DNA of 64,000 nucleotides from an uncultured Planctomycetales bacterium. GTDB taxonomy: Bacteria > Omnitrophota > Gorgyraeia > Gygaellales > Profunditerraquicolaceae. This document shows, in pieces, positions 34,582 through 59,716 of this stretch (its first letter is position 1; each line of letters opens with the position of its first letter). The stretch lies in assembly GCA_964545575.1 (NCBI GenBank), contig CAZJFL010000002.1:59564-123563 (forward strand), written 5' to 3'. Below the pieces are notes generated by a model, which was not told where the DNA came from, searched no databases, and saw nothing but the letters and a program-made list of their open reading frames with translations. The position numbers and the translations under genes are program-made.

Positions 34582-35463
34582 TTAGATGACCTCTAAGCTT
34601 AAATCTACCGACTCCAGGGAATGGGTTAATTCGCCGATAGAAATAATATCTACCCCGCAGGAGGCGATTTTACGCACACTCTTTAAATCTACGCCGCCGG
34701 AGGTTTCTAGTTTAGTCCGAGGGTGGTGGCTGTTAAAGACAGTGTTATTTCTGATTTTTACCGCTTTTTTAATCTCGGCTAGGTCCATATTATCCAGCAT
34801 AATCACATCGGGTTTAAACCTGAGGGCATGCCTGAACTCATCGAGATTCTGTACTTCTATCTCTATTTTAAACCCTTTGGGCACGCTGGGCAGCCGGTCA
34901 TAACCTGCGGTGACTTTAATATGATTGTCCTTAATCAGAATCATCTCGTCTAAACCCATACGGTGATTGTATCCCCCGCCGATTCTTACGGCGTATTTCT
35001 GCAGTTCGCGCAGGCCAGGCATAGTTTTTCTGGTGTCGGTGATTTTTGTCTTATAGGGCTCTATCTTTCTGACGTATTCGCGGGTCTTAGTAGCCACTCC
35101 CGACATCATCGATATAAGATTAAGCGCTACTCTTTCTGCGGTTAAGATACTCCTGGCTTTTCCGGAAAGTTCGGTGATGATCTTGCCTTTTTGGGCAGGC
35201 TTGCCGTCTTTACTTAAGGGTTTAAAAGAAATGTCCTTATCTACCGCCTTAAACACGGCTTCGGCAACCTCCAGGCCGCAAATTATACAGTCTTCTCTGA
35301 CTAAAATTACGGCCTTAATCTCTTTATCTTCGGGAATAGTGAGCCGGGTAGTGATATCTCCTTTGCCGATATCCTCGATCAGCGCCTTGCGCACGATTAC
35401 TTCCAGCCTTGATTTTTCTATATGGGGAGCCGCATCCGAGAGAAAATATTTATCTAAAGCCAT
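34582..35463 (-). CDS. nadC: Nicotinate-nucleotide pyrophosphorylase (carboxylating)
   Basis: 293 aa, type II PRTase family pattern. Confidence 0.9.
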   Translation of the reverse strand: MALDKYFLSDAAPHIEKSRLEVIVRKALIEDIGKGDITTRLTIPEDKEIKAVILVREDCIICGLEVAEAVFKAVDKDISFKPLSKDGKPAQKGKIITELSGKARSILTAERVALNLISMMSGVATKTREYVRKIEPYKTKITDTRKTMPGLRELQKYAVRIGGGYNHRMGLDEMILIKDNHIKVTAGYDRLPSVPKGFKIEIEVQNLDEFRHALRFKPDVIMLDNMDLAEIKKAVKIRNNTVFNSHHPRTKLETSGGVDLKSVRKIASCGVDIISIGELTHSLESVDLSLEVI

Positions 35464-38299
35464 CTCTTGCCGCCTTTACTTTTTTTAAAGCTTCTTTTAG
35501 CTCCTCTAGTTTAGAGCTTTCTTTTGCTACGATCTCTTCCGGCGCCTTCTTTACAAACTCCTTATTCGCCAAAGTTTTTTCTTTGGCTTTTATTTCTGCT
35601 TCTACTTTAGCGATCCTGTCTTCTAGCTTAGCCTTTTCTTTTTCTATATCGATAACACCTTCTAGGGGAAGAGTGATATGCATGTCTTTGACAATAGCGC
35701 TGATACTGGATTTTATATGGGTATATTTTTGTTCTATATCGAGGCGGCTTAACTTAGCCAGTTTTTTGATCTGGGCAGACAGCCCGGAAACCAGTTCTCT
35801 TGTTTCCTTTGCTGCGCTTGAAATGATGGCGTTTATTTCCTCGTCCTGCGGGATATCCAGCTCCTGGCGCATATTTCTTATAGTGGTGATTGTCTCTAAA
35901 ATCAAGCTCATCCTCTCTTCTAATTTCTTATCGATTATTTGCTCCTGGATGTGCGGCGAGGGCTGAATGCTGATGGATTTCCCTTGATGAGGAAGCGCCT
36001 GCCAGACCTCTTCGCTAATAAAGGGCATAAAAGGATGGATTGCGCGCAGGAACTTTTCCAGCACCTTGTACATGACTACTTGGATTTGCGGATTTTTAAT
36101 ATCTGATTTAATCATCTCCAGGTACCAGTCGCAGAACTCATGCCAGAAGAAGCCGTATAAAAGGTTTGCCGCTTCGTTAAAACGGTAAGCCGCCAAATTA
36201 TTATTTACTTGCTTAAGCGTAGAATAAAATCTGCTTAAAATCCAGCGGTTAACTAAGCCAAATCCTTTATAAGGGGCTGTCCCCGCAGAAGGCGGGGCAC
36301 CAAACCATTCCCGCAAAGGCGGGACACCGACGCATCCTTTAGCGTCGGGTGCAGGTTTGGGTGCCTCCGTAATACCAAGATTCATCAGGATAAACCGGGA
36401 GGCGTTCCAGATTTTGTTGGCAAAGTTCCTTCCCTGTTCAAATCTTTCTTTGGAAAGATGCACATCCTGGCCCTGGGCCGTGATTGCAATCAGGCTGAAA
36501 CGCAGAGCATCGGCGCCGTATTCATTAATAATGTCCAGCGGGTCAATGATATTGCCCAGCGACTTGGACATCTTTTTGCCTTCGATATCGCGCACTGTGC
36601 CGTGGATATAGACATCCTTAAAGGGTATCTCTTTCATGAATTCCAGGCCCGCCATGATCATGCGCGCCACCCAGAAGAAAATGATTTCCGGAGCAGTAAC
36701 CAGAACCGAGGTAGGGTAAAAATAAGCTAAATCTTTTTGCTTATCGCTTATCGCTAATCGCTTATCGTCTTGCACGATATGCGATATGCGATATGCGCTA
36801 TGCTCGAATGGCCAGTAAAAGACCGCAAACGGCCACAGCCAGGAAGAAAACCAGGTATCCAGCACGTCTTCGTCCTGATAGATATCAGTCGAGCCGCAAT
36901 GTGGACACTTGTCGGGTTTAATTCTGGAAACTATAACTCCCTCCTGCTTATCGCTTATCGCTAATCGCTTATTGGCCTTTTGCGATATGCGATATGCGAT
37001 ATGCGATATGCAGTTCTTACAATAATAAACCGGCAACCTGTGCCCCCACCAGATCTGGCGCGAGATGCACCATTCTTGAATATTCTCCATCCAGTCCAAA
37101 TATACCTTAGTCCAGCGCTGCGGATAGAATTTAATTTTACCCTTTTTAACTGCCTCTATCGCCGGTTTTGCCAGCGACTGCATCTTCACAAACCATTGTT
37201 TGGATAAATACGGCTCAATAATGGTGTGGCAACGGTAACAATGGCCTGCGGATAACGGATGAGGTTCGACTTTTTCTAGCAATCCTTTTTCCTTTAAATC
37301 CTCCAGAATTACTTCCCGCGCCTGGAATCTATCCATATCTTTATAATCACCGGCAAACTCATTCATGCGTCCGTCAGGATGCATCACGTTGATAAACTCC
37401 AGCTTATGTTTCTTTCCTAAAAGATAGTCATTAGGATCGTGCGCCGGAGTTACCTTAACCGCACCTGTGCCAAATTTCATATCCACCAGGCTATCGGCAA
37501 TGATTTTTATCTGCCGGTTGATCAATGGTAAAATCAGGATTTTACCGACGAGTTTTTTATAGCGTTTATCTTTGGGGTTGACCGCAACGGCTGTATCTCC
37601 GAGCATGGTTTCCGGACGTGTAGTCGCTACTACGACATGATCAGGGACAGTCCCCTTCAGGGACAGTCCCTGTGCTTCCTTTAGCGGATACCTCAAGTAA
37701 TATAAATTTCCCTGCAATTCGTGGTGTGGCGCCTCTTCGTCAGAAAGGGCAGTCTGGCAGCGCGGGCACCAGTTGATGATGTAGCTGCCTCTATAAATCA
37801 GGCCCTTCTCGTATAATCTGACAAAAACTTCAATCACAGCTTGAGAGTATTCTTCATCCATGGTAAAGCGCGTACGCGACCAGTCGCAGGAAACACCTAG
37901 CTTCTTTAACTGATGAATTATAGTTACACCGTATTGCTCCTTCCATTGCCAGACCCGCGCAATGAATTTTTCCCGGCCTAAGTCCTGACGCTTCAGTCCT
38001 TCTTTGGCGATCGCCTTTTCTACCACATTTTGCGTAGCGATTCCGGCGTGGTCAGTTCCCGGCATCCAGAGGGATTCTTCGCCTTGCATGCGGTGATAAC
38101 GGATAAGGATATCCTGAATAGTGTTATTCAGGGCGTGTCCCATATGCAGAATCCCGGTAACATTTGGCGGCGGGATGACTATAGAGAAAGGCTTTTTTGC
38201 AGGGTCTGCTTTTGCGGCAAAAAGATTATTCTCTTCCCAGAATTTGTACCACTTCTCTTCGGTTTCCTTAGGGCTATATCGAGTAGGTATTTCATTCAT
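35450..38299 (-). CDS. valS: Valine--tRNA ligase carrying two in-frame palindromic-repeat insertions
   Basis: 949 aa class I aaRS with HIGH (ILHMGHALN), WCISRQ, the zinc knuckle CKNC...CPHCGS and KMSKS. Two ~66 bp repeat copies encode the extra peptides ...SHIAYRISQKANKRLAISDKQEG... and ...HSAYRISHIVQDDKRLAISDKQKD... Confidence 0.95.
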   Translation of the reverse strand: MNEIPTRYSPKETEEKWYKFWEENNLFAAKADPAKKPFSIVIPPPNVTGILHMGHALNNTIQDILIRYHRMQGEESLWMPGTDHAGIATQNVVEKAIAKEGLKRQDLGREKFIARVWQWKEQYGVTIIHQLKKLGVSCDWSRTRFTMDEEYSQAVIEVFVRLYEKGLIYRGSYIINWCPRCQTALSDEEAPHHELQGNLYYLRYPLKEAQGLSLKGTVPDHVVVATTRPETMLGDTAVAVNPKDKRYKKLVGKILILPLINRQIKIIADSLVDMKFGTGAVKVTPAHDPNDYLLGKKHKLEFINVMHPDGRMNEFAGDYKDMDRFQAREVILEDLKEKGLLEKVEPHPLSAGHCYRCHTIIEPYLSKQWFVKMQSLAKPAIEAVKKGKIKFYPQRWTKVYLDWMENIQEWCISRQIWWGHRLPVYYCKNCISHIAYRISQKANKRLAISDKQEGVIVSRIKPDKCPHCGSTDIYQDEDVLDTWFSSWLWPFAVFYWPFEHSAYRISHIVQDDKRLAISDKQKDLAYFYPTSVLVTAPEIIFFWVARMIMAGLEFMKEIPFKDVYIHGTVRDIEGKKMSKSLGNIIDPLDIINEYGADALRFSLIAITAQGQDVHLSKERFEQGRNFANKIWNASRFILMNLGITEAPKPAPDAKGCVGVPPLREWFGAPPSAGTAPYKGFGLVNRWILSRFYSTLKQVNNNLAAYRFNEAANLLYGFFWHEFCDWYLEMIKSDIKNPQIQVVMYKVLEKFLRAIHPFMPFISEEVWQALPHQGKSISIQPSPHIQEQIIDKKLEERMSLILETITTIRNMRQELDIPQDEEINAIISSAAKETRELVSGLSAQIKKLAKLSRLDIEQKYTHIKSSISAIVKDMHITLPLEGVIDIEKEKAKLEDRIAKVEAEIKAKEKTLANKEFVKKAPEEIVAKESSKLEELKEALKKVKAARDGFR
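36740..36804. repeat. Family B palindromic element (CTTATCG)n-loop-(CGATATG)n, copy inside valS
   Basis: GCTTATCGCTTATCGCTAATCGCTTATCG-TCTTGCA-CGATATGCGATATGCGATATGCGCTATGC. In frame in valS. Confidence 0.9.
36948..37012. repeat. Family B palindromic element, second copy inside valS
   Basis: GCTTATCGCTTATCGCTAATCGCTTATTGGCCTTTTGCGATATGCGATATGCGATATGCGATATGC. In frame in valS. Confidence 0.9.
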
Positions 38300-39208: not shown

Positions 39209-40783
39209 TTAGGACTGCGCTTTTTGATCCTTCAATAATTTATATTCTACACTATCGACCAAAGCTTGCCAGCTGGCTTCGATGATGTTTTCCGAAACAC
39301 CGATGGTGCTCCAGGTATCTTTTTCATCCTGCGATTGGATCAAAACGCGCACCTTAGCGGCAGTGCCTGCTTTTTCATCCAATACGCGCACCTTAAAATC
39401 CGAAAGGTGCATTTTAGAGAGCGCAGGATAAAATTCTTTTAAGGCTTTGCGCAGGGCATTATCCAACGCATTTACCGGGCCGTCTCCATCAGCGGCAGTA
39501 TGCTCCTTGGTACCCCTGACTTTTAGCTTCATGATTGCTTCGGAAGTAATTTTTTTATTTGCTTGTTTTTCCACCACTACGCGGAACCCTTCCAATTCAA
39601 AGAATTTTTTATAAATTTTGAACGCCTTCTTCATCAACAGCTCAAAAGAAGCCTCTGCTGCTTCAAAGTGATAACCCTGGTGTTCGAGTTTCTGAATCAG
39701 CTTAAGGATCCTTTTGGTCTTAGGATCATCTTTGCTGAGATCTAATTTGATATCTTTGGCGCGTAGCAAGATTCCGGTTTTACCCGCCAGTTCCGACATC
39801 AGGACCCGGCGCCTATTTCCTACGAGATCCGGCTCGATATGCTCATAAGTCTTAGGGTTTTTCATCACCGCGTTAATATGCACCCCGCCTTTATGCGCAA
39901 AAGCCGAAGCTCCGGTATAGGGCTGGTCGCTCCTCTGTTTCATATTACTGATTTCGCTGACAAAATGTGATACCTTAGTCAATTCCCTCAATTTATCGTC
40001 TGAAATACAATGCATGCCCAACTTTAATTTAAGGTTGGCGATGATCGGGATTAAATCCGCATTACCGCAGCGCTCTCCATATCCGTTAATCGTCCCCTGC
40101 ACCATATCTGCTCCTGCCTCTACCGCGGCAATAGAATTTGCTACGGCTAAATCCGCATCATTGTGGCAATGAATCCCTAACCAAACCTTAATTTTTGGCC
40201 GGGCCTCCCGGACTACCTTTGAAATTTCAGAAGTCAGGGTTCCGCCGTTAGTATCGCATAAAACTACCGCTCTTGCGCCCGCTTCCTGCGCCGTCATTAG
40301 GCATCTTAAAGAATATCCTGGATTTGCCGCGTAAGCATCAAAAAAATGTTCGGCATCATAAAATACCGTCAGGCCCTTGGAAACTAAAAAGGCAACCGTA
40401 TCTTTAATCATGCTTAAATTTTCTTCCAGGGTCGTCTTTAAAACATCGGTAATATGTAAATCCCAGGTTTTGCCGAAAATTGTAATTACCTGAGCCTGCG
40501 ATTTTACCAACGCCTTAAGGTTAGCGTCATCTAAAGGCTTGGTATGCGGCCTTCTGGTTGAGCCAAAAGCCACGAGCTCCGCATTTTTCAGCCGGGATTT
40601 ACCCATCTTCAGAAAAAACTCCATATCTTTAGGATTTGACCCCGGCCAGCCGCCTTCAATATAATGGACGCCCAGCCTATCCAGTTCGCGGGCAATGGCG
40701 ATCTTATCCATGACCGAATAAGAGATGCCTTCCCCTTGCGCGCCGTCGCGTAAAGTCGTATCGTATAATTTTACCTTGGACAT
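39209..40783 (-). CDS. cimA: (R)-citramalate synthase / 2-isopropylmalate synthase family
   Basis: 524 aa. N-terminus LYDTTLRDGAQGEGISYSVMDKIAIARELDRLGVHYIEGGWPGSNPKDMEFF matches the CimA-type DRE-TIM enzymes. C-terminal LeuA-dimer-like regulatory domain. Confidence 0.8.
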   Translation of the reverse strand: MSKVKLYDTTLRDGAQGEGISYSVMDKIAIARELDRLGVHYIEGGWPGSNPKDMEFFLKMGKSRLKNAELVAFGSTRRPHTKPLDDANLKALVKSQAQVITIFGKTWDLHITDVLKTTLEENLSMIKDTVAFLVSKGLTVFYDAEHFFDAYAANPGYSLRCLMTAQEAGARAVVLCDTNGGTLTSEISKVVREARPKIKVWLGIHCHNDADLAVANSIAAVEAGADMVQGTINGYGERCGNADLIPIIANLKLKLGMHCISDDKLRELTKVSHFVSEISNMKQRSDQPYTGASAFAHKGGVHINAVMKNPKTYEHIEPDLVGNRRRVLMSELAGKTGILLRAKDIKLDLSKDDPKTKRILKLIQKLEHQGYHFEAAEASFELLMKKAFKIYKKFFELEGFRVVVEKQANKKITSEAIMKLKVRGTKEHTAADGDGPVNALDNALRKALKEFYPALSKMHLSDFKVRVLDEKAGTAAKVRVLIQSQDEKDTWSTIGVSENIIEASWQALVDSVEYKLLKDQKAQS

Positions 40784-40791: not shown

Positions 40792-42015
40792 TCAACTTTT
40801 TTTCAGACCAAACTTTTCATGCAGCGCCCTGACTGCGATTTCCCCGAATTTCTTCTGTATAATACAAGATATACTGATATCGGAAGTAGAGATCATTTCT
40901 ATATTGATTTTATTCCTGGCTAAAGCGTCAAACATAGTAGCCGCTACTCCGGAATGCGATTTCATGCCTACGCCGACTATAGAAACTCTGGAGATAGCCT
41001 GATCTTCTAAGACGTCGCCCGCGCCGATATTTTTGGCGATTCTTTTGGCGACCTTTAATGTTTTTAAGGCATTGGCTTTATTGACGGTAAAAGATATGTC
41101 GGTCTTACGCGTATGACTGACGTTTTGCACGATCATATCCACGCTGATACCGCCTTCGGAGAGTTTCTTAAAAATCTTGGCCGCAATTCCCGGACGGTCA
41201 GGTACATCGCAAACAGTCACCTTAACTTCGTTTTTATTCAGCGTTACGCCTGTTACGACTACGTCTTCCATGCGTTTAGCCTCCTTAATAATCCTAGTTC
41301 CGGTACTTTTAGAAAATGACGAACGCACGTGTATCGGCACGTCAAACTTTTTTGCCACTTCAATGGAGCGCGCCTGCATTACCTGAGCGCCGAGGGATGC
41401 CATTTCCAGCATTTCGTCATAAGTAATCTGGTTTATTTTTCTGGCTCTTTGCTCTATGCGCGGATCGGTAGTATACACCCCTTCTACGTCGGTATAGATT
41501 TCGCATTCCTCTGCGGCTAGTTCTTTTGCCAGGGCTACGGCAGTTAAATCCGAACCGCCTCTGCCTAAGGTAGTGATATCCTGATTCAAGGTAACCCCCT
41601 GAAATCCGGCGACAATCACAATTTTACCTTTTCCAAGCTCCTCTTTTATCTTATCGGCGTTTATTTTGATGATCCGCGCGCGGGTGTGGCTGGCGTCAGT
41701 AATGATACCTACCTGCGCCCCGGTAAAGGAGATTGCCTGATACCCTAATTTATCTATGGCCATGGCCAGAAGCGCTACCGATATCTGTTCTCCCGTAGAC
41801 AAAAGCATGTCCATTTCGCGCTCAGGCGGTTCCAACGTAATTTTACTAGCCAACTCAATCAGCTCGTCGGTAGTGTCGCCGAGGGCTGAAACCACCACTA
41901 CCAGATCATAACCTCTCTTGCGATAGTTCACTACTCTTTTGGCTACATTCTGTATACACTGCGCATTAGCCACAGATGAGCCGCCGAATTTTTGCACAAT
42001 TAACCTCTTAGGCAT
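40792..42015 (-). CDS. lysC: Aspartate kinase
   Basis: 407 aa, amino-acid kinase fold (KFGGSSV) plus two C-terminal ACT domains. Confidence 0.92.
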   Translation of the reverse strand: MPKRLIVQKFGGSSVANAQCIQNVAKRVVNYRKRGYDLVVVVSALGDTTDELIELASKITLEPPEREMDMLLSTGEQISVALLAMAIDKLGYQAISFTGAQVGIITDASHTRARIIKINADKIKEELGKGKIVIVAGFQGVTLNQDITTLGRGGSDLTAVALAKELAAEECEIYTDVEGVYTTDPRIEQRARKINQITYDEMLEMASLGAQVMQARSIEVAKKFDVPIHVRSSFSKSTGTRIIKEAKRMEDVVVTGVTLNKNEVKVTVCDVPDRPGIAAKIFKKLSEGGISVDMIVQNVSHTRKTDISFTVNKANALKTLKVAKRIAKNIGAGDVLEDQAISRVSIVGVGMKSHSGVAATMFDALARNKINIEMISTSDISISCIIQKKFGEIAVRALHEKFGLKKS

Positions 42016-43588
42016 ATTTTCTCCTTAATGCAATTATTACTTCGTAGACCATAAATCCGGCCAAGACGATTAAAATTCCGCATACAACCAGAAGCACTAT
42101 GTCTTTCTGGCCGAAATATCTGATTGTCTGTAACACTAATGACGCCAGCGTCGTAATCAGCATAAAAAAAGCCGGGATAAGCACCATCTTCGCCGGTTTC
42201 TTCTTCGCTAATAACCAACAGCTGAGTACAAATAAAGCTAAGGCCGCAACCAGCTGATTGGAGGCCCCGAATGCCGGCCAGATCTTCTGCCACCGGCCGC
42301 TAAAAGCAAGGCCGGCGCTTAAAATCAAAATAAATAAAGTAGATAGATAGCGGTTTTTTATTCCGAATAATTCCTCGGTCAAATAACGCGATATTCTCGT
42401 CGCCGTATCCAACGTAGTCAAGATAAAAGCATTAAGTATGGTAATGGCGATAAAGGGCCCGTAATTCGCCAAGATTCCGCTGGTAATCCGGCCGTAGCCT
42501 TTGGCAAAGATGCCTATAGGCCCGCTTGTTTTTAAGGCCGCTGCAAGCCCTTCCTTATCGCTAAAGAGAATGGCTGCCGCAATTATCGCCAGCACTGCCA
42601 CCAGGCCTTCTGTAATCATTGCGCCGTAGCCGATTCTTTTAGCATAGCGTTCGTTGGCAATCTGTTTTGAAGAGGTGCCGCTGGAAATCAAAGCGTGGAA
42701 TCCCGAAACCGCACCGCAGGCAACGGTGACAAATAATGCCGGCCAGAGGTACCCTTCGCTTGTCCCCCATTTATGATAAGCAGGCATCTGTATTTGCGGA
42801 CGCGATAATATTATCCCTAAGTAACCGACGCCTGCGCCAAAAAATAATAAAAAACTGCAAAGGTAATCCCGCGGCTGTAAAAGCAAGTTAACCGGTAAAA
42901 CCGAGGCAAAATAACAATAGGTCAATAAAATTGCCAGCCATACAATCAATCCGCCTTTAATAGGTAAAGCATTGCCTAAAAATATTAAAGCTACTAAGCT
43001 GGTTAATCCGAAAACCGTAGCTAACACCATATTTATTCTTATATTATATAAAAAATATCCCACCAGCATTGCCAAGGGAATAAGGCCTAGGGACGGCAGC
43101 ACTATTTTAGGTTCCTTAACAAAGGTATCTGCGCACAGGTAGGCAAAGACAGCAATAACTAAGATCAAAGCCAGCCAGACGAATAAACAAAAAATCAGCT
43201 TTGCCCGGCGGGAGATTACGTGTTCTGCGATATCGGCAACCGAAGAGCCGCCTTCCCTTACCGAAGTAATCAAGGCGCCGAAATCATGTACTCCGCCGAT
43301 AAAAATCGAACCTAAGATGACCCAGACTAAAGCCGGCAGCCAACCCCAAAGCATTACCGCAATTACCGGCCCGATGATCGGCCCGGCCCCGGCAATCGAA
43401 GAAAAATGATGCCCGAATAAAACCAGCCAGTTTTTCGCCGGGATATAGTCTACGCTGTCATATTTAGAATAGGCCGGCGTTGACCTTTTAGGGTCGATCG
43501 CCCAAAGCGCTACCACTTTTGCGGCATAAAATTTATATGCCCAAAAAAATAAAATTCCAGAAATAGCTACAATGATTAAAGAGTTCAT
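42008..43588 (-). CDS. cstA: Carbon starvation protein A family transporter
   Basis: 526 aa polytopic membrane protein with CstA N-terminal conservation (LFGHHFSSIAGAGPIIGPV). Confidence 0.88.
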   Translation of the reverse strand: MNSLIIVAISGILFFWAYKFYAAKVVALWAIDPKRSTPAYSKYDSVDYIPAKNWLVLFGHHFSSIAGAGPIIGPVIAVMLWGWLPALVWVILGSIFIGGVHDFGALITSVREGGSSVADIAEHVISRRAKLIFCLFVWLALILVIAVFAYLCADTFVKEPKIVLPSLGLIPLAMLVGYFLYNIRINMVLATVFGLTSLVALIFLGNALPIKGGLIVWLAILLTYCYFASVLPVNLLLQPRDYLCSFLLFFGAGVGYLGIILSRPQIQMPAYHKWGTSEGYLWPALFVTVACGAVSGFHALISSGTSSKQIANERYAKRIGYGAMITEGLVAVLAIIAAAILFSDKEGLAAALKTSGPIGIFAKGYGRITSGILANYGPFIAITILNAFILTTLDTATRISRYLTEELFGIKNRYLSTLFILILSAGLAFSGRWQKIWPAFGASNQLVAALALFVLSCWLLAKKKPAKMVLIPAFFMLITTLASLVLQTIRYFGQKDIVLLVVCGILIVLAGFMVYEVIIALRRKYA

Positions 43589-44787
43589 GCCTCCCCTTTA
43601 ATAAAATAATCCATTAACTCATGGCCTTTATCAAAATAAAGGCTGGACTTTTCTGATTCTTTCTCGCAGTATTTAGCGAAATTACCCGCGGCTACCCCCT
43701 GCCCATAGATACCGAAAAGTACGGCGTCCGCAACATGGGTGCGCACGGAAACAGGCGTGGCATGGTCAGGCATGACTAAAATCCGGAAATTATGGTTGCG
43801 CTTGGAACCTTCTAATATCGTACCCACTACCAGCTGATCGAATCTTTCAATAGCGGTAATTTTTTCCCTCAGATCTCCGTTATGCCCGGCTTCATCCGGA
43901 GCTTCCACATGCACGAAAACAAAATCTTTGCTCTTCAGCGATTTTAAAGCGGCCTTGGCTTTGGCTTCGTAATCCGTATCATAATAACCGGTAGCCCCCG
44001 GGACATTGATTACCTCCAACCCCAATATCCTACCCAGCCCTTTAATTAAATCCACCGCTGAAATAACGCTACCGGTCAGGCCGTATTTATCGATGAACCT
44101 CTGCATCGCCGGCCTCTTGCCCTGTCCCCAGAGCCAGATCATATTCGCCGGATTCTCTTTTAAATCTATTCTGACTAGATTTATCTCGTGATTCTCCAGG
44201 ACCCCGCAGGACCGCTGCATTAAATCAATCAAAATATCCGCATTTTCTCCCCGGGGTAAGTTTTTATTGACTTCCTGACCGGAAATATCATGCGGCGCCT
44301 TGCACTGTACGCTTTCTAATCCCTGTCCGGCTCCCCCTTTGAATAAAGCTAGATGCCGGTAGCTGACGCCGGGATAAAACTTAATCCTCTCTGTACCTAA
44401 ACTTTTATCTATGGACTCAATCAGGATGCCGGCTTCCTCGGAGCTGATATGGCCAGAGCTATAATCTAACAGCTTACCTTGAGAAACTGTGACCAGGTTG
44501 CAGCGGAAGGCAACATCACCTTCTTTTAATTCTATTCCCAGATTCGCCGCCTCAAGCGGGCCTCTGCCGGTATAAACCTCTTTAGGGTTATAGCCGAAAA
44601 TAGAAACATTGGCAACGTCGGAACCGGGAGTCATTTTATCGGGAATTGTCTTTACGCGGCCGAGGGTACCGTGGCTGGCAATAAAATCCATATTGGGAGT
44701 GCGCGCTACCTCAAGAGGCGTTCTGCCATCCAGCTCTTTAATAGGGTAATCCGCCATGCCGTCACCGACTAAGACTATATATTTCAT
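43585..44787 (-). CDS. apgM: Cofactor-independent phosphoglycerate mutase, archaeal type (ApgM family); candidate homoserine kinase analogue
   Basis: 400 aa with metalloenzyme superfamily motifs (VLVGDGMADYP ... FRCNLVTV ... HVEAPDEAGHNGD). Lies in the hom-thrC cluster, which lacks a GHMP-type thrB. Confidence 0.8.
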   Translation of the reverse strand: MKYIVLVGDGMADYPIKELDGRTPLEVARTPNMDFIASHGTLGRVKTIPDKMTPGSDVANVSIFGYNPKEVYTGRGPLEAANLGIELKEGDVAFRCNLVTVSQGKLLDYSSGHISSEEAGILIESIDKSLGTERIKFYPGVSYRHLALFKGGAGQGLESVQCKAPHDISGQEVNKNLPRGENADILIDLMQRSCGVLENHEINLVRIDLKENPANMIWLWGQGKRPAMQRFIDKYGLTGSVISAVDLIKGLGRILGLEVINVPGATGYYDTDYEAKAKAALKSLKSKDFVFVHVEAPDEAGHNGDLREKITAIERFDQLVVGTILEGSKRNHNFRILVMPDHATPVSVRTHVADAVLFGIYGQGVAAGNFAKYCEKESEKSSLYFDKGHELMDYFIKGEA

Positions 44788-44804
44788 TTTAAGTAACTAG
44801 TAAA

Positions 44805-45434
44805 TTAGTAACTGGTAACTAGTAATTTTATTAAACGACCTGCTAATTCTTTTTTATTCTTTACCTTAATAATGCCGGATCCCCTGCCGATAATAAATGC
44901 CCGATAAGGATTAATCCTGTTTGCTACCACCACTTCGGCTTTTAGTTTCTGGCGCGCTAATTTTGCCCTTTGTATCAAAGCTTTATCGATGACCTGCGGC
45001 TCTAGCTTAAAGATGACTAATTTTGCCTTAGGGCTTGCTGCCCTGATTTCTCTGGCAATCTTAGGCAAAGGGGTTAACTTTAAAGTATGGCTTCTAAGGG
45101 AGGAAATCTTTCCCCCGGATCTCCTGACCGGTTTAAAATCAGAAACCGCGGCATTGTGCACGATAATATCGTATTTATTTATACGCAGCTCTTGTTTTAG
45201 CCGGTTTCTTAATTCATCAAAGAACTTAAAATTTACTAACCTGATGCGCTTATCTATAGAGCAAGAACTTACCGGGCCTAAGAATAAAGTTACGCGCGCG
45301 CCAAGTCTGGTTAATTTTTCCGCCAGTAAAATCCCGGTTTGGCCGCTTGCTATATTACTGATTACCCTGACGCTGTCTATCGGAACCCAAGTGGGGCCGG
45401 CGGTTATCAGAATCCTTTTATTTTTAAAACTCAT
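44805..45434 (-). CDS. coaB: Phosphopantothenate--cysteine ligase (stand-alone CoaB domain)
   Basis: 209 aa, ILITAGPTWVPIDSVRVISNIASGQTG matches the CoaB signature. No CoaC flavoprotein domain. Confidence 0.75.
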   Translation of the reverse strand: MSFKNKRILITAGPTWVPIDSVRVISNIASGQTGILLAEKLTRLGARVTLFLGPVSSCSIDKRIRLVNFKFFDELRNRLKQELRINKYDIIVHNAAVSDFKPVRRSGGKISSLRSHTLKLTPLPKIAREIRAASPKAKLVIFKLEPQVIDKALIQRAKLARQKLKAEVVVANRINPYRAFIIGRGSGIIKVKNKKELAGRLIKLLVTSY

Positions 45435-45437
45435 GTA

Positions 45438-46505
45438 CTAATAACCAATTTCTTTCAATACTGCTTTTAATTCTGGTTTCACAACTTTCGGCTCTTCGAT
45501 GCTCTTGATCGCCCTGTCCGGATCTTTCAGCCCGTGGCCGGTCAAGATGCAGACGACTTTTGCCGGCTGCTTAAAATACCCTTGTTTTACCAACTTCAAT
45601 AATCCCGCGACTGAAGCAGCCGAGGCCGGTTCTACAAAAATCCCTTCTTTTGCCGCTAACAGTTTATAGGCATCTAATATTTCCTCGTCGGAAACCATCT
45701 CAATTAACCCGCCGGATTCATCGCGCGCTGCTTCTGCCTGTTTCCAGCTGGCCGGATTTCCGATGCGTATAGCGCTAGCTATAGTCTTTGGTTCTTTAAC
45801 CGGGTGGCCGCGCACAATGGGTGCGGCTCCCTCTGCCTGGAATCCCAGCATTTTAGGCAGGCTTTTGATTTTACCTTCGGCCTGATATTCTTTATACCCC
45901 TTCCAGTAAGCGGTGATATTTCCGGCATTACCCACCGGCATTGCTTGAAAATCCGGCGGCTCGCCCAGAAAATCACAAATTTCAAAGCTGGCTGTTTTTT
46001 GCCCCTCAATACGGAAAGGATTCAGAGAGTTAACCAGGGTAATCGGATATTTTTTAGTAATCTCTCTGGCCAGTTCAAGCGCGTCGTCAAAATTACCTTC
46101 GACTGCCAAAACCTTAGCGCCATGGATAAGCGCCTGGCTTAATTTTCCTAAGGCAATGGCACCGCTGGGAATAAGCACGATGCACTTAATTCCGGCGGCT
46201 GCCGCATAGGCTGCGGCGGAAGCTGAAGTATTTCCGGTAGAGGCGCACATCACTGCCTTTGCCCCTTCTTCGCAGGCCTTTGAAATTGCCATGGTCATAC
46301 CCCTATCCTTAAAGGAACCGGTGGGGTTTAACCCTTCATACTTTAAATAAACCCTAAAGCCCTTCCCCATTAATCCGCTCAAATGCGCGGCCTCTAACAG
46401 CGGGGTATTCCCTTCCTGTAAACTGATCACCGGGGTTTTGTCTGTTACGGGCAGATATTTGCGGTATCTGGCAATTACTCCTAGGTATTTTTTGTTTTCT
46501 ATCAT
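45438..46505 (-). CDS. thrC: Threonine synthase
   Basis: 355 aa PLP fold-type II enzyme, GNTPLLEA...SFKDRGMT motif. Confidence 0.92.
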
Positions 46506-47797
46506 AGTTCTTCCATCCTTATCGCTACCGACTTCTGCTTAATCACTTCCAGACGGTTAATGATGGAGAGCGCATCGCGCAAATCCTTCTCCTTTGCCTG
46601 ATGGATGATCATCACTATCGGCACGATGTCGCCTTTATTCCTTTCCTTCTGGGTCACCGAAGCGATACTAATCCCGTATTTGGCCAGGACCCCGGATATT
46701 TTAGCTAATACGCCGGGCTTATCCTGAGCCATAAAACGGATATAATAACGGCTTTCGGATTCGTGGATACGCCGCAGTTTCTTGATAGATTTATCCACGG
46801 TGATGTTTAGCGTCGGCCTGAATAATCCCGCGGTGATCCCCTGAGCCAATCCCACTAAATCCGAGACTACGCCTGAGGCGGCCGAAAGCTGCCCTGCCCC
46901 GGGGCCGTAGAATAACAAATCTCCGGCCAGATCGCTTGATACATAGATAGCATTAAATACGCCGCCTACGGATGATAAAAGATGGCCTTTGGCTATCAGC
47001 GTGGGATGGACCCTGACCTCTAATTCACTGCCTTCTTTTTTGGCTATCGCTAGCAGTTTGATTTCAAAACCCAATTCTTTGGCGTAATTAACGTCTGCCA
47101 GAGAAATCTGCGCTATCCCCTCAATAAATATATCGTCCAGGGCCACTAACCTTCCGAAACACAAATAAGTAAGCAGGATCAATTTATGCGCCGAATCTAT
47201 ACCCTCGATGTCTAAAGTCGGATCTTTTTCCGCAAAGCCCTTCTTCTGCGCCTGACGCAGGGCATCGCCAAAGGTGTAATTCTTGGCGGACATCTCGGAT
47301 AAAACAAAATTAGAAGTGCCGTTTACTATGCCGAAGATACTATAAAAATTATTAGCGACCAAGCCTTCGCGCAAAGACTTGATAATCGGGATGCCTGCTG
47401 CGACGGAGGCTTCAAAATAAATACTCTTGCCCCGGTCCCGAGCAAGCGCAAACAGCTCGGCGCCCTTCTCTGCCAGGAGCGCTTTATTGGCGGTGACGAC
47501 GCTTTTACCCTTTTTTAATGCCTCGGCTATATATTCTCTGGCCGGATGTATCCCGCCGATCAACTCCACGATAATATCTATCTGCGGGTCGTTGATCACT
47601 ACCCCCGCATCCTTAGTCAGCAGGCTTTTATCAACGGCCACATTCCTCTTAGAACTTAAATCCTGGTCACAGATCTTCTTTACAACTATCTCTAAGCCCG
47701 TCTTTTCGCTTAAAACAGCTTTTTTCTCCCGCAATATCCTGACTACGCCGGAACCGACATTGCCGAACCCGATCAAGCCAATGTTGATCTTTCTCAT
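46502..47797 (-). CDS. hom: Homoserine dehydrogenase
   Basis: 431 aa, N-terminal NAD-binding [12 protein letters not shown], catalytic domain, C-terminal ACT domain. Confidence 0.92.
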
Positions 47798-47800: not shown

Positions 47801-48154
47801 TTATCCTTTCTTCAGATAATACTCTATGGTATCGGTCATTACTTTTCTATGGTTTTCATCTACCGCTAAAAACTGCAGCCGGGTGTCATAAATCAGGGCT
47901 TTGGTGATTTCGCGCGAGTCGACGACCCTGCCGATGACCATAATCGGATGCGGGTCAAAGGGAAGCCGTATTTCTAAGGCCAGGTTCGTTCCCGGGCTAA
48001 ACTGCTTATTTGTGGTCAGGAGCATGCCGCCTAAACTTAAGTTTTTGGTCTGCGAGATGTCGATACTGTTATTTTCTTCCAGCATCCGGTAGGAAACGAT
48101 AAAACGGGCAGATATCCGCGGATGTTTTCTTCTTTCCAGCCCTGAGTAACCCAT
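47801..48154 (-). CDS. PilZ domain protein (c-di-GMP receptor family)
   Basis: 117 aa, RRKHPR and DISQTKNLSLGG motifs (RxxxR ... DxSxxG). Confidence 0.8.
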   Translation of the reverse strand: MGYSGLERRKHPRISARFIVSYRMLEENNSIDISQTKNLSLGGMLLTTNKQFSPGTNLALEIRLPFDPHPIMVIGRVVDSREITKALIYDTRLQFLAVDENHRKVMTDTIEYYLKKG

Positions 48155-48197: not shown

Positions 48198-48268
48198 AGC
48201 GAGCGATCGGAATCGAACCGACATATATAGCTTGGAAGGCTATTGTTCTACCATTGAACTACGCTCGC
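48198..48268 (-). tRNA. tRNA-Gly (anticodon TCC)
   Basis: Manual fold: GCGAGCG acceptor, anticodon loop CTTCCAA, T-loop TTCGATT. Confidence 0.85.
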
Positions 48269-48287: not shown

Positions 48288-49277
48288 TTACTCCTCTTTC
48301 TTCCGGCGCGTCATTAAATCTTTCACTACTTTTTCCGGAGATTTATTTTTATAGAGAACGCCGTAGACTTCCCTGGTAATAGGCATTTCTACTTTATATT
48401 TTAAACTTAACCTATAGGCTGATTGCGTAGTAGGTACCCCCTCTGCTACCATCTGCATATTTCTTTTGACCCCGGCCAAAGATTTACCCTTGCCAATCTG
48501 TTCTCCTACAAACCTGTTTCTGCTATAAGGGCTGATGCAAGTAGTAACTAAATCTCCCAACCCGCTAATGCCGCTAAAGGTGCTGACTTTAGCCCCCATC
48601 GCCCTGCCGAGCCGGGAAATCTCCGCCAGGCCCCTGGATAAGAGAGCGGCTTTAGTGTTGGTGCCGAAACCAAAACCGTCGGATATCCCGCAGGCGATAG
48701 CAATAATATTTTTCAGGCTGCCGCCTAACTCTACCCCGATTACATCATCATTGGTATAAATCCTGAACCTTTCAGTCATAAAAATATCCTGCAGTATTTT
48801 TCTGGTTGCTTTATCATGAGCAGCAACCACGGCGGTAGTAGGTATGCCTTTGGCTACTTCATGGGCTATAGTGGGCCCGGAAAGCACGGCGAATCTTACC
48901 TGTCCTAACTCGCTGTGTATAACCTCGGACATCCTCTTTAAAGTTCCCATCTCGATGCCCTTAGTAACGCTTAAGTATATCGCTCCTTTGGGATACCCGA
49001 GTCTCTTTATCTTTCTTAAGACGCCGCGCATATGTTGCGAAGGCGCGGCAAGAATGACGAGGTCTCTTCCGTCTAATACTTCTTTTAACTTATGGGTAAT
49101 TTTTATCTCTTTGGGTATTTTAATCCCGGGTAAAAACCTGATGTTAATCCTTTTTTTATCGAGATACCCGGCGTAACCGCCGAAAGCCCCCCAGAGCGCG
49201 ACCGGAAAACCCTTATTACTTAAAAGTATTGCCAGGGCCGTGCCCCAACCCCCGTCGCCTAAAACAGCTATTTTCAT
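48288..49277 (-). CDS. gpsA: NAD(P)H-dependent glycerol-3-phosphate dehydrogenase
   Basis: Start trimmed to the internal Met (MKIAVLGDGGWGTALA). The longer track ORF adds a K/R-rich extension that overlaps the upstream gene in another frame. Confidence 0.9.
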   Translation of the reverse strand: MKIAVLGDGGWGTALAILLSNKGFPVALWGAFGGYAGYLDKKRINIRFLPGIKIPKEIKITHKLKEVLDGRDLVILAAPSQHMRGVLRKIKRLGYPKGAIYLSVTKGIEMGTLKRMSEVIHSELGQVRFAVLSGPTIAHEVAKGIPTTAVVAAHDKATRKILQDIFMTERFRIYTNDDVIGVELGGSLKNIIAIACGISDGFGFGTNTKAALLSRGLAEISRLGRAMGAKVSTFSGISGLGDLVTTCISPYSRNRFVGEQIGKGKSLAGVKRNMQMVAEGVPTTQSAYRLSLKYKVEMPITREVYGVLYKNKSPEKVVKDLMTRRKKEE

Positions 49278-49281
49278 CAGC

Positions 49282-49791
49282 TTAAGCCTCTTCCTCTTCT
49301 TCTTCTTTTTCTGCTGCGCTTTCTTCCGGAGCCTCACCCGCCTCCAATTCTCCCTGCGGCTCCTCCTCTTGTTCCTCTTCTGGCTCCAGGCTTTCATTTT
49401 CCATTTTAAGGAAATGTATTTTAGGGTAAATATGCGTCAGGTTCTTTTCTTCGCGGGTCAAAAACTGGATGCCGGCATCGTAACTACCGTCTGCCTTATG
49501 CTCGCTCCTGACCACTTTCCCGATGATTCCGCTTTGATAGATGAAACTTCTTTTTTCCAGGCCCTCGCAGATCAATAACGTTGCCCGGTCAAAGGAAAGC
49601 CAGACTATCTCGCCTTTCTTAGGCTTATATTTTATGTTGCAGAGCAATCCCGCTTCGCTGATGTCAGCGGTGTAGCCTTTCAGGAGTTTAGAAAGAGTTT
49701 TTTTCTTGCATACTTTATAAGCCAGGGGCGTCACATAATCTAACCTGACGAACTTGCGGCGCTCCGACCCTTTGTAAACGGTTTTTTTCAT
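49282..49791 (-). CDS. PilZ domain protein with acidic poly-Glu C-terminal tail
   Basis: 169 aa, SERRKFVR and DISEAGL PilZ motifs. The C-terminus is EEEQEEEPQGELEAGEAPEESAAEKEEEEEEA. Confidence 0.75.
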   Translation of the reverse strand: MKKTVYKGSERRKFVRLDYVTPLAYKVCKKKTLSKLLKGYTADISEAGLLCNIKYKPKKGEIVWLSFDRATLLICEGLEKRSFIYQSGIIGKVVRSEHKADGSYDAGIQFLTREEKNLTHIYPKIHFLKMENESLEPEEEQEEEPQGELEAGEAPEESAAEKEEEEEEA

Positions 49792-49795: not shown

Positions 49796-50545
49796 TCATC
49801 CTATTCTGATGTTGGGTTTATTAGTCCTAATTTTAGCCAGATCCCAGCTGTAATCATAAAGGTGTAAACCTTTGCTTACGGCGATAATTTCTCCGTCCCC
49901 GACCCCTATCTCATCTGCCATATATTGTTTGACTAATTGCAGCCCGCCCAAATTAGAAGGGAAACCGCCCCAGAGGTCCCAAGAACGAAAGTACAAAATA
50001 AAATGCAACTTACCATAACGCACTCTTGTATCTATGATTCTTAGGCACGGCGGATCGGCCAAAGTAATATCCGAAGGCATGCCGATCTCCATAATCGCTT
50101 GGTTTGTCCCGGACCCCTTCTCTTTGTAAATCTTGATTACTTCTTCTATCTGGTTTACCTCCAAAGGCATCTCCTTGACCATCTCTTTGCCTTGCGCCTT
50201 GTGTTTTATTCTTACTTTCGGGTCTACCAGCCTTTCTCCGTAAGTATAATCTTCGGTTTCCGTTTTTGCCCCGGTCAGGAGATAACTTAAATAACCCTGG
50301 ATATAATTCATATCCGTCGGCGCCGGGATACTCATTCCTTCCGGAATAATAGGAATAATCTGATGCGCGGGCTTTTTTACCCGCACCACGGCAAAATCGA
50401 ATTCCAGGCGCTTCTGCCCTTCGTAGCTGCCGCGGGTTATGGTATAGACGTAGCCTTTTTCCAGTATTCCACAGAGGCACTGAAACCAGGCATCGTCCAG
50501 ATCAAAGGCGTCAATAAAAACAGGTTCTAAAAATTCTCTTTCCAA
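49796..50545 (-). CDS. thyA: Thymidylate synthase family protein (short, divergent ThyA-like)
   Basis: 249 aa. Aligns to the ThyA core: PPCLRIIDTRV / LHFILYFRSWDLWGGFPSNLGGLQLVKQYMA matches PPCHxxFQFYV / LSCQLYQRSxDxFLGVPFNIASYALLxHMxA. Confidence 0.6.
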   Translation of the reverse strand: MEREFLEPVFIDAFDLDDAWFQCLCGILEKGYVYTITRGSYEGQKRLEFDFAVVRVKKPAHQIIPIIPEGMSIPAPTDMNYIQGYLSYLLTGAKTETEDYTYGERLVDPKVRIKHKAQGKEMVKEMPLEVNQIEEVIKIYKEKGSGTNQAIMEIGMPSDITLADPPCLRIIDTRVRYGKLHFILYFRSWDLWGGFPSNLGGLQLVKQYMADEIGVGDGEIIAVSKGLHLYDYSWDLAKIRTNKPNIRIG

Positions 50546-57860: not shown

Positions 57861-58649
57861 CTATCTTTTACGGTAGGCGTCAAGATAGGAATCGCAATAT
57901 ATTTGCTTATTCAGGATCAATTCTGCGGTAATCGCGGCATCCATCAATTGCGCATCTTTAGGGTCCAGTATCGCCGCATCTAATCCAAAGGTGATGGCCA
58001 TGGTCAGGAATGTGCGGTTAATGAGATTACGCACGCAGGCGCCCTGCGAAACATTGCTTAATCCGACGATGGTTTTGGGGCTGGGGTCGGAAATAATCTT
58101 AAACTCATGAATCACCTCTAAAATATCGCGCATCTGGGCCTGCGCGACATTAACCGGCATCACTATCGGGTCAAGGTAAAGGTCATCTATCGGAAATCCC
58201 TGATCCGAGCAGCAAGCTACGATTGTGGCGGCCAACTCCAGCCTCTGGTCCTTATTCTGCGGTATGCCTTTGGTGCTGATAGTGAGCCCGATTAGTTTAG
58301 CATGATATTTTTTGGCTAAAGGCACCAGCACTTCCAGTTTTTCCGGGTCGGCGGTGGTAGAATTGATGATGGCTTTATTTTTTATAACCTTTAATCCGGA
58401 TTCGATGACCTCGGGCTTGCTGGAATCTATGGCTAAAGGGCTATCTGTGACTTCCTGTATGGTTTGCGCCAACCACTGAATATCCGAGATCGGCTCGCGC
58501 GAAGCCGGGCCGCAATTGATATCCAAGGCATCTGCCCCGCATTTAATCTGCTCCATAGCGCATTTCTGGATAGTCACCTTATCTTTCTCTTTTATCGCCC
58601 TGCCGATATCTTTATACATCCCGTTAATTAGTTCACCAATAATAAACAT
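57861..58649 (-). CDS. acsE: Methyltetrahydrofolate:corrinoid/iron-sulfur protein Co-methyltransferase
   Basis: 262 aa pterin-binding TIM barrel. Closely parallels Moorella AcsE along its whole length (IIGE.INGM...ALD.N.GP...INST...DP...GLSNVSQ...NRTFL). Confidence 0.93.
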   Translation of the reverse strand: MFIIGELINGMYKDIGRAIKEKDKVTIQKCAMEQIKCGADALDINCGPASREPISDIQWLAQTIQEVTDSPLAIDSSKPEVIESGLKVIKNKAIINSTTADPEKLEVLVPLAKKYHAKLIGLTISTKGIPQNKDQRLELAATIVACCSDQGFPIDDLYLDPIVMPVNVAQAQMRDILEVIHEFKIISDPSPKTIVGLSNVSQGACVRNLINRTFLTMAITFGLDAAILDPKDAQLMDAAITAELILNKQIYCDSYLDAYRKR

Positions 58650-58665
58650 AAGTACACTCCTAATT

Positions 58666-58788
58666 TTAAACTCTAAACCCTAAACACTAAATCCTAAACA
58701 AATCCAAAACCCAAAATACAAAACGTTTTGAGTTTTTTAGTTTTGAATTTTGAGTTTGTTTAGAGTTTAGGATTTCGGATTTAGGATT
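58666..58788. repeat. Long imperfect palindrome (~60 nt arms) made of AAACCCTAAA / TTTAGG(G/A)TTT-like units, centred on AAAACGTTTT
   Basis: Intergenic between acsE and acsD. The left arm is rich in CTAAA(C/T)CC units and the right arm carries the mirror TTTAGGATTT units. Confidence 0.8.
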
Positions 58789-59716
58789 TATATAAATCTC
58801 CTATGTATTTGTTTACTTTTTCTATAGCCAAGGGATGCCGCATTACTAAAATATCCGCGCCGGCCTGAATTAAAGCCGTGGCAGTAATCACTTCCCACAT
58901 TATCCCCTGCTCTGCTTCTGCCTTAGCTTCTTTTGCCCGCCAGGATTCCTGCCCCGCAAAACAAATAAAAGGACTGGCTACGGTTTTATCACCGGCTAAG
59001 GCAGCTAAACGCGCCCGCTCCATAATCGAATAGGCGTATTCCAAACCGTAACCTAAAGCGCCGATGGTAGGATTAATCACGATCCGTTCCAGCGGCAGGC
59101 TCATATCGGAAATCAGAATATTCAGTTGTTTGGCAATATTTATGTCTATGGGCGACTCCGCGATAAGATTATGCCCGTCGGCTAACACTGCCGCCGCCAG
59201 AGTCTTATAATTATCCTGCGCGGCGCAACCGACAAGGCAACGCTCTCCTTTTGCCGCTTCGCAGACCGCCGGTAATACCAGATTGTCTTTTTCGTCATCG
59301 CCGCATCCGACGATGATCAAAGGCACTCCTACCTTTTTTAATAATTGCCTGACGAGATCCGCTTCTGCCTCAGGGGTCTTATTGCCGAAATCCGGATGCG
59401 CGCCTTGAAGCCTCAAACATAGAAGCCCTGTCCTATGCTTTTCTACGCACATTTGCGCCCAGGTAAGCGGGTCTTTTAAACTATCGCCGTAAGCGCCTGC
59501 CAATTCCTGCGGCCAATCACCAGGGATAACATCCCAGATTTCGGAAGCGATTACCGGCGGGTAAGGCAAATTGCCTTCGGCGAATAAAAACGGCAGGGCT
59601 CTCTGTCCCCCGACCCCGATGGTTCCCTGGCGGCTGCCGCCTTCGGCTTTCTGGGAGCCGATAGTCACTACTGCCACTTCCCCGGACCACTTTTCCATAA
59701 TCGATTCTAATGCCAT
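58781..59716 (-). CDS. acsD: Corrinoid iron-sulfur protein small subunit (CODH/ACS delta subunit)
   Basis: 311 aa. Aligns along its length with Moorella AcsD (GG..ALPF...VVGCGD.EKD..VL..V...NIIA.SP.DIN..KQLNIL...LP...IV.DP..G.LGYG.EY..SIMER.RL.AL.GDK). Confidence 0.93.
   Translation of the reverse strand: MALESIMEKWSGEVAVVTIGSQKAEGGSRQGTIGVGGQRALPFLFAEGNLPYPPVIASEIWDVIPGDWPQELAGAYGDSLKDPLTWAQMCVEKHRTGLLCLRLQGAHPDFGNKTPEAEADLVRQLLKKVGVPLIIVGCGDDEKDNLVLPAVCEAAKGERCLVGCAAQDNYKTLAAAVLADGHNLIAESPIDINIAKQLNILISDMSLPLERIVINPTIGALGYGLEYAYSIMERARLAALAGDKTVASPFICFAGQESWRAKEAKAEAEQGIMWEVITATALIQAGADILVMRHPLAIEKVNKYIGDLYKS

Follow-up and report, generated by a model that had tools for sequence, protein, structure and literature searches.

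The 400 aa ApgM-like protein encoded at positions 43585 to 44787 on the minus strand of the window, the whole 64 kb stretch of DNA analysed here, is very probably a HomK (ThrB2, TIGR02535) homoserine phosphotransferase that replaces the GHMP-type homoserine kinase ThrB. The basis of this assignment is family membership, residue conservation and synteny, as examined in the present analysis, and the genetic validation of two other members in the literature. The locus belongs to an already published and genetically validated family; it is a routine further member and not a new candidate enzyme, and the current understanding of the HomK family is unchanged by it.

The literature on this family can be summarised as follows. 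Mutants of BT2402 of Bacteroides thetaiotaomicron require threonine (PMC7311316), and the distributions of thrB2 and thrB are complementary, 278 of 300 genomes with thrB2 being without thrB (PMC9026213). An E. coli thrB::kan strain was rescued by BT2402 and by DET_RS08350 of Dehalococcoides mccartyi; the rescue was weak, with an OD600 gain of 0.14-0.25 after 47 h (bioRxiv 10.1101/2024.10.14.618325). An earlier attempt to rescue E. coli thrB with BT2402 had failed (PMC7311316).

Gene cluster and its spacing

The gene is found in a tightly packed run on the minus strand, in the order PilZ-hom-thrC-CoaB-like-ApgM-like-cstA-lysC-cimA, with a tRNA gene at the upstream edge of the cluster.

48198..48268, minus strand: tRNA-Gly(UCC)
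47801..48154, minus strand: PilZ-domain protein, first of the run (PF07238, 46.5 bits)
46502..47797, minus strand: hom, homoserine dehydrogenase ending in an ACT domain at the C-terminus (NF004976, 515.9 bits; Pfam PF03447, PF00742, PF01842)
45438..46505, minus strand: thrC, threonine synthase, which consumes O-phosphohomoserine (TIGR00260, 336.2 bits, cutoff 167.1)
44805..45434, minus strand: stand-alone DFP/CoaB-like protein, 209 aa, between thrC and homK (Pfam PF04127, 131.7 bits; under all NCBIfam cutoffs)
43585..44787, minus strand: predicted homoserine phosphotransferase HomK/ThrB2 (TIGR02535), 400 aa, ApgM-like alkaline-phosphatase-superfamily fold (PF10143 and PF01676)
42008..43588, minus strand: CstA-family transporter, 526 aa (PF02554, 449 bits)
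40792..42015, minus strand: lysC, monofunctional aspartate kinase (NF005155, 590.9 bits)
39209..40783, minus strand: cimA, citramalate synthase, last of the run (TIGR00977, 768 bits, cutoff 450)

Along this run the packing varies from an 8 bp overlap, the extreme case, to a 17 bp gap. A spacer of 3 bp separates the PilZ gene from hom downstream of it; hom shares 4 bp (ATGA) with thrC, and the CoaB-like gene follows thrC after 3 bp and precedes the ApgM-like gene by 17 bp. The start codon of cstA lies on the stop codon of homK (4 bp overlap), the end of cstA extends 8 bp into lysC, and cimA begins 8 bp downstream of lysC. The gene coordinates and family-model matches bear out the cluster reported in a preliminary description, namely adjacent hom and thrC with a co-directional ApgM-family gene and with lysC downstream of the latter, separated by cstA. 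Of the spacers given there, the one of about 17 bp between the CoaB-like and ApgM-like genes is correct, but the 3 bp between hom and thrC is in fact the 4 bp overlap and the 17 bp between thrC and the CoaB-like gene is in fact 3 bp. The genes assigned there to 43585-47797 are present, but the run reaches further, to the PilZ gene on one side and through lysC to cimA on the other.

On the basis of this arrangement, homK probably shares a transcript with hom, thrC, lysC and cimA, which would together form an aspartate-family/isoleucine operon. When the region 38-50 kb was scanned for promoters and terminators, the counts showed no excess over shuffled controls (22 versus 20.2; 19 versus 15.2), so that the operon is proposed from gene spacing and synteny only. 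An Rfam scan detected no leader or riboswitch within the cluster, its matches being tRNAs and RNase P RNA only.

Search for a GHMP kinase or another mutase in the window

The preliminary description had pointed out that a GHMP-type homoserine kinase is lacking at this locus, and the same was found for the window as a whole. When the other 53 ORFs that tile the 64 kb (at least 70 aa) were scanned against Pfam, neither a GHMP kinase domain nor a further phosphoglycerate mutase was detected, and the GHMP kinase domains (PF00288 / PF08544) are absent also from the 400 aa protein itself. The unassigned gaps in the window are all 409 bp or shorter, and therefore too small for a hidden gene of either kind.

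Family assignment

The protein might be an ordinary glycolytic or gluconeogenic ApgM mutase that merely lies within a housekeeping operon, with the homoserine kinase encoded elsewhere in the genome. The names of family models favour this view, because the top match of the protein is NF003242, "cofactor-independent phosphoglycerate mutase" (571.4 bits, cutoff 426), and because it passes also the general apgM model TIGR00306 (531.3 bits), which carries the name phosphoglycerate mutase too. Its homologues are likewise called phosphoglycerate mutase in public sources, and the 64 kb examined encode no second mutase. We nevertheless consider this explanation very unlikely, on account of the model scores given below and of the residues and synteny described in the following sections, in addition to the published genetic evidence for two HomK members.

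On TIGR02535 ("proposed homoserine kinase"), the window protein scores 558.6 bits and passes the cutoff of 446.3, and this score exceeds that on TIGR00306. It fails both mutase equivalog models, NF003104 (329.4, cutoff 489) and NF003160 (193.3, cutoff 468). The pattern is the reverse of that of the solved archaeal mutases 2zkt and 3kd8, which pass NF003104 and fail TIGR02535 (275-324 bits). Two second paralogues found near homologues of the window gene, at the loci L061 and L066, resemble the solved mutases: they fail TIGR02535 as well (183-324 bits for all four sequences), and that of L066 passes NF003104 and that of L061 passes NF003160. NF003242 thus tracks TIGR02535 and the HomK clade, not the solved mutases, in spite of its name. 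The best solved structure for the window protein is 2zkt (E=4e-65), and a solved homologue at this level means that the fold is already fixed.

Catalytic residues and specificity signature

Two codons of the gene are of particular importance.

44620..44622, minus strand: TCC codon of Ser56, predicted phospho-accepting nucleophile in the motif TPGSDVAN, invariant in the alignments
43903..43905, minus strand: GAA codon of Glu295, the position that separates HomK from mutases, aligned to Lys of 2zkt and 3kd8

The catalytic Ser and the metal ligands (D9, S56, D298, H302, D341, H342 and H351) are invariant across the alignments. The numbering of Ser56 is identical to that of the catalytic S56 of BT2402. 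The window protein and all of the best 80 matches of a genome scan have Glu at position 295, where the second paralogues of L061 and L066 have Lys. The residue separating HomK from mutases in BT2402 is E299 (bioRxiv 10.1101/2024.10.14.618325); its correspondence to Glu295 was assigned by this published description and the alignment to 2zkt and 3kd8.

Other charged residues have changed together with position 295. The Arg residues at 109, 110, 113 and 220 and the His at 143 are present in all four sequences that make up the mutase side of this comparison (2zkt, 3kd8 and the second paralogues of L061 and L066), whereas 78-81 of the 81 HomK-type sequences have an uncharged residue or His there. 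In the window protein, D-Y-S-S-G-H stands in place of the mutase motif D-R-R-A-G-R, with Trp for Arg220 and Tyr for His143. The loss of these four Arg and the Glu at 295 argue against an ordinary mutase, as does the fact that a second paralogue nearby, where one was found, bears the mutase signature.

Homologues and conserved synteny

The homologue set consists of the best 80 matches from a single genome scan, none of them from Bacteroides; they belong mainly to Candidatus Omnitrophota, and additionally to several other bacterial phyla and to methanogen-related archaea. A separate protein search gave matches in close Omnitrophota relatives only. The majority of the 80 adjoin thrC, hom and lysC. 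At the 61 loci with enough sequence, thrC lies upstream of homK on the same strand in 42, which include several phyla, and hom does so in 39. Downstream of homK, lysC was found at 48 of 60 related loci, cimA at 41 and, directly adjoining homK, cstA at 16. This synteny with thrC, hom and lysC, kept across phyla, also counts against a mutase that lies in the operon by chance. Taken together with the TIGR02535 match, the failure of the mutase equivalogs and Glu295, the conserved vicinity of hom and thrC supports the proposal of the preliminary description that the ApgM-family protein is a non-orthologous ThrB.

The slot between thrC and homK is occupied by a CoaB-like gene at 16 of the 61 loci, with an identity of only 34-51%. 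Some relatives (L008, L014 and L022) have inserts of 1.5-4 kb between the CoaB-like gene and homK. When these inserts were checked by sequence for a hidden GHMP kinase, nothing kinase-like was evident; judged by eye, they seem to encode LemA/TPM-like proteins, membrane-bound or secreted, whose tails are rich in glycine.

Comparison with known enzymes

The window protein shares with the HomK type members BT2402 and DET_RS08350 a score above the TIGR02535 cutoff, the same Ser56 and metal ligands, a Glu where mutases have the specificity Lys, and a gene in the vicinity of hom and thrC on the same strand. It differs from them in its host, an uncultured Candidatus Omnitrophota lineage, and in being known here from sequence alone; its operon has two extra genes, the CoaB-like one that separates thrC from homK and the cstA transporter gene that separates homK from lysC. 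ApgM (2zkt of Pyrococcus horikoshii; 3kd8/3idd) has the same PF10143 and PF01676 domains with 32-36% full-length identity, and its nucleophile and metal-binding residues are identical; the difference lies in the Lys295 to Glu replacement and the other substitutions listed above.

ThrB, the ATP-dependent GHMP kinase, performs the same step as HomK and supplies O-phosphohomoserine for ThrC, but the folds of the two are unrelated. Their reactions probably differ too, because the donor for HomK is likely other than ATP and a covalent phospho-enzyme intermediate is likely formed (bioRxiv 10.1101/2024.10.14.618325). A precedent for making O-phosphohomoserine from a non-ATP donor is ThrH, the phosphoserine:homoserine phosphotransferase of Pseudomonas aeruginosa, which has no homology to HomK (bioRxiv 10.1101/2024.10.14.618325).

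Proposed mechanism and phosphate donor

The window protein probably acts as a phosphotransferase with a non-ATP donor and a phospho-serine intermediate, and not as a kinase in the sense of ThrB. By homology to the archaeal cofactor-independent phosphoglycerate mutases, Ser56 would be activated by two metals, bound at D9/S56/D341/H342 and D298/H302/H351, and would accept a phosphoryl group from the donor and hand it on to the gamma-hydroxyl of homoserine. The change from Lys to Glu295 and the lost mutase Arg residues may have converted a pocket for anionic phosphoglycerate into one that fits the amino group of homoserine. The product would be O-phospho-L-homoserine for the threonine synthase encoded by the adjacent thrC.

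As for the donor, 2- or 3-phosphoglycerate is the most obvious one by homology and the catalytic machinery is conserved in full, so that a bifunctional enzyme can be envisaged, which both interconverts phosphoglycerates and transfers the phosphoryl group from phosphoglycerate to homoserine, serving glycolysis and threonine synthesis. This appears highly improbable to us, because five positive or His residues, present throughout the four mutase-type sequences, have been lost, which speaks against tight binding of phosphoglycerate, and because glycerate kinase, which would be needed for recycling glycerate, does not co-occur with HomK, being present in 53% of HomK genomes and 67% of ThrB genomes (bioRxiv 10.1101/2024.10.14.618325). 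The curators of the TIGRFAM model suggested PEP as the phosphate donor (TIGR02535). The recurrent coupling of homK and cstA could be a clue to such a donor (PEP, with pyruvate as the product), or the CoaB-like protein of this clade could be a functional partner and not a passenger, but we regard this idea as an unlikely one.

Phosphorylation of another hydroxy-amino acid, e.g., to L-threonine O-3-phosphate for cobalamin synthesis, a role speculated for Glu-bearing homologues beside cobD (bioRxiv 10.1101/2024.10.14.618325), is scarcely credible here: the Glu at the specificity position is common to these homologues, but their better model is TIGR00306 and that of the window protein is TIGR02535, and the gene of the latter lies between thrC and lysC.

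Implications for annotation

With a HomK function for this protein, judged from its sequence, the Omnitrophota lineage most likely makes threonine by the HomK route, and a lack of thrB would accordingly be no sign of threonine auxotrophy. This point bears on the inference of host dependence in small-celled uncultured bacteria. Since public annotation of the homologues is still phosphoglycerate mutase and NF003242 tracks the HomK clade, many MAGs may have been given a wrongly complete glycolysis and an incomplete threonine synthesis. The charge-reversal signature (Lys295 to Glu and the four lost Arg) offers more positions for mutagenesis in studies of the donor and mechanism of HomK.

Additional observations on the flanking genes

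By its NCBIfam name, CstA of E. coli is a pyruvate/proton symporter, and the pyruvate-consuming cimA is encoded further downstream of the homK-cstA pair. At the other end of the run, a strong Shine-Dalgarno sequence, AAAGGAGG, precedes the ATG of the PilZ gene, and many of the Omnitrophota relatives have a PilZ gene upstream of hom.

Organization of the gene cluster

According to the ORF map and family searches, an unbroken series of same-direction genes occupies the minus strand at 39.2-48.3 kb of the window.

Features of the cluster, in the direction of transcription
48198-48268, tRNA-Gly, upstream boundary of the cluster
47801-48154 (-), PilZ-domain protein (PF07238)
46502-47797 (-), hom, homoserine dehydrogenase (NF004976, 515.9 bits)
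45438-46505 (-), thrC, threonine synthase (TIGR00260, 336.2 bits; cutoff 167.1)
44805-45434 (-), DFP/CoaB-like protein, 209 aa (PF04127; under all NCBIfam cutoffs)
43585-44787 (-), ApgM-family protein, 400 aa (PF10143 and PF01676)
42008-43588 (-), CstA transporter (PF02554)
40792-42015 (-), lysC, aspartate kinase (NF005155, 590.9 bits)
39209-40783 (-), cimA, citramalate synthase (TIGR00977, 768 bits)

The searches agree with the cluster coordinates and gene identities of the preliminary description. The junctions, read from the sequence, are a 3 bp gap for PilZ/hom, a 4 bp overlap for hom/thrC (previously given as a 3 bp spacer), a 3 bp gap for thrC/CoaB-like (previously ~17 bp), a 17 bp gap for CoaB-like/ApgM-like, as had been described, a 4 bp overlap for ApgM-like/cstA, where the stop codon of homK and the start codon of cstA share bases, an 8 bp overlap for cstA/lysC and an 8 bp gap for lysC/cimA. 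Promoter and terminator scans around the cluster (38-50 kb) gave results no better than shuffles, and the Rfam scan detected no regulatory RNAs within the cluster.

The PilZ domain is a c-di-GMP receptor, heading here a threonine/lysine operon; its gene, the first of the amino-acid run, directly precedes hom and keeps this place in many Omnitrophota relatives. A second PilZ-domain protein (49282-49791) lies on the other side of gpsA. The longest gpsA ORF (48288-49397) starts with ~40 additional residues rich in Lys/Arg and runs into the PilZ ORF upstream of it; the same gene is called at 329 aa on the identical ENA contig, so translation probably begins at the internal MKIAVLGDG. At 526 aa, the CstA-family transporter is shorter than E. 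coli CstA (701 aa), and its match to the E. coli-type model is confined to the first half (profile positions 32-385 of 701). The CoaB-like protein stands alone, and the window contains no CoaC flavoprotein domain. Relatives retain it between thrC and homK, yet at 34-51% identity, compared with 70-80% for its neighbours; it is thus evolving much faster than the adjoining genes.

A probable ThrB replacement in the window

The preliminary description held that the cluster lacks a GHMP-type homoserine kinase gene, and this was borne out for the 64 kb window. We covered the window with 61 ORFs, none overlapping and each 70 aa or longer (longest unassigned gap, 409 bp), and ran the 53 non-cluster ORFs against Pfam as concatenates with Gly-Ser linkers; these contained neither a GHMP kinase domain nor a second phosphoglycerate mutase of any type, a result that refers to the window and not to the genome. 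Serglycin matches in the Pfam tables were rejected as products of the artificial linkers.

The proposal that the ApgM-family protein is a non-orthologous ThrB is supported by model scores, residues and context. The protein scores above cutoff with TIGR02535 ("proposed homoserine kinase"; 558.6 bits, cutoff 446.3) and with NF003242 (571.4 bits, cutoff 426), and below it with the archaeal mutase equivalogs NF003104 (329.4 bits, cutoff 489) and NF003160 (193.3 bits, cutoff 468). As controls we used four mutase-type sequences, namely the solved 2zkt and 3kd8 and two paralogues with Lys at position 295 that adjoin HomK-type genes elsewhere: all four pass NF003104 or NF003160 and stay below the cutoffs of TIGR02535 (183-324 bits) and of NF003242 (189-324 bits), showing that NF003242 follows the HomK clade despite its name. 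Among solved structures the nearest is 2zkt, the mutase of Pyrococcus horikoshii (E=4e-65, 36% identity).

This family, put forward by TIGRFAM curators as a substitute for ThrB (summary in PMC7311316), was named ThrB2 by Ashniev et al., who found 278 of 300 ThrB2-carrying gut genomes to be without thrB (PMC9026213). Bacteroides thetaiotaomicron mutants in the gene BT2402 require threonine (PMC7311316), and the GapMind preprint of Price and colleagues (2026 version; bioRxiv 10.1101/2024.10.14.618325) reports rescue of E. coli thrB::kan by BT2402 and by the divergent DET_RS08350, renaming the family HomK. The family is already curated, named and genetically validated, and the window protein is a further member from a new lineage, its membership, residues and synteny being direct observations. 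Judged from its sequence, it has all the sequence and local-context features that serve as criteria in that preprint.

Residues and proposed mechanism

In the alignment, Ser56 (the nucleophile) and the metal-binding residues D9, D298, H302, D341, H342 and H351 do not vary, and position 295 (motif HVEAPDEAGH) is Glu in the window protein vs Lys in 2zkt and 3kd8. Price and colleagues proposed E299 of BT2402, Lys in mutases, as the likely specificity determinant, its carboxylate touching the homoserine amino group in their model (bioRxiv 10.1101/2024.10.14.618325). From the published description, the numbering and the 2zkt/3kd8 alignment, Glu295 appears to correspond to E299, because D9 and S56 are numbered identically in both proteins, the later offset is small (4-5 residues) and this is the sole Glu-vs-Lys position of that segment. 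Glu occupies it in all of the best 80 homologues listed. Five more positions part 81 Glu-type sequences from the small sample of four mutase-type ones: D-Y-S-x-G-H stands in place of the mutase motif D-R-R-A-G-R (positions 109, 110 and 113), Trp in place of Arg220 and Tyr in place of His143. With four mutase-type sequences compared, this loss of positive charge would fit a substrate change from anionic to zwitterionic.

By homology to the archaeal cofactor-independent mutases, we infer that a donor would phosphorylate Ser56 at the two-metal site, and that Ser56 would hand the phosphoryl group on to homoserine positioned by Glu295. As for the donor, the TIGRFAM curators earlier suggested PEP, and the GapMind preprint argues that it is not ATP, offering phosphoserine as speculation (bioRxiv 10.1101/2024.10.14.618325).

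Relatives and conserved synteny

One scan of species-representative genomes provided the best 80 loci (51-72% identity), the majority from Candidatus Omnitrophota and others labelled Nitrospirota/Thermodesulfovibrionales, Elusimicrobia, Ratteibacteria, Auribacterota, Desulfobacterales, Methanosarcinales, Methanocellales and Methanoperedens. Among those with sufficient flanking sequence (61 upstream, 60 downstream), thrC lies within 5 kb upstream of homK on the same strand in 42/61, hom upstream in 39/61 and a CoaB-like gene upstream in 16/61, while lysC, cimA and cstA lie downstream in 48, 41 and 16 of the 60, respectively. Some relatives carry 1.5-4 kb of further genes between the CoaB-like gene and homK; reading the translations by eye, no kinase-like features were evident in these inserts, whose products look like LemA/TPM-type membrane proteins.

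Two loci carry HomK-like and mutase-like paralogues: L061 (3683-4813 and 10001-11209) and L066, from the Methanocellales MAG JASEEV010000003.1 (8929-10002 and 18937-20001). In each, the second paralogue has Lys at position 295, and the Glu-type and Lys-type genes lie <10 kb apart in one genome, which is direct evidence that they coexist as separate functions. That the window protein is a bifunctional enzyme, or one forming threonine phosphate, finds little support. Model scores, residue signature, synteny and the Lys-type paralogues present elsewhere all contradict its being a plain glycolytic mutase.

Other features of the window

The valS ORF (35450-38299, minus strand) contains, at 36738-37025, two copies ~207 bp apart of a short heptamer tandem-repeat element, in which GCTTATC-type heptamers are followed by CGATATG-type ones, near reverse complements of one another. 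Both copies are in frame within valyl-tRNA synthetase, adding the repeated peptide segments AYRIS...KRLAISDKQ, and the element looks like a small hairpin-forming one inserted twice in an essential gene. Bacterial class A RNase P RNA was found at 24036-24429 (167 bits); because it overlaps a 132 aa plus-strand ORF (24089-24487), the latter was rejected as spurious. The ORF at 49796-50545 (249 aa, starting with TTG) matches thymidylate synthase weakly and over part of the profile (PF00303, 38 bits, positions 104-220 of 266) and may encode a divergent ThyA-like protein. Wood-Ljungdahl/acetyl-CoA synthase accessory genes lie at 57861-63802, encoding a pterin-binding methyltransferase, two CdhD-family corrinoid protein subunits, a CooC-like ATPase and a RACo corrinoid activator.
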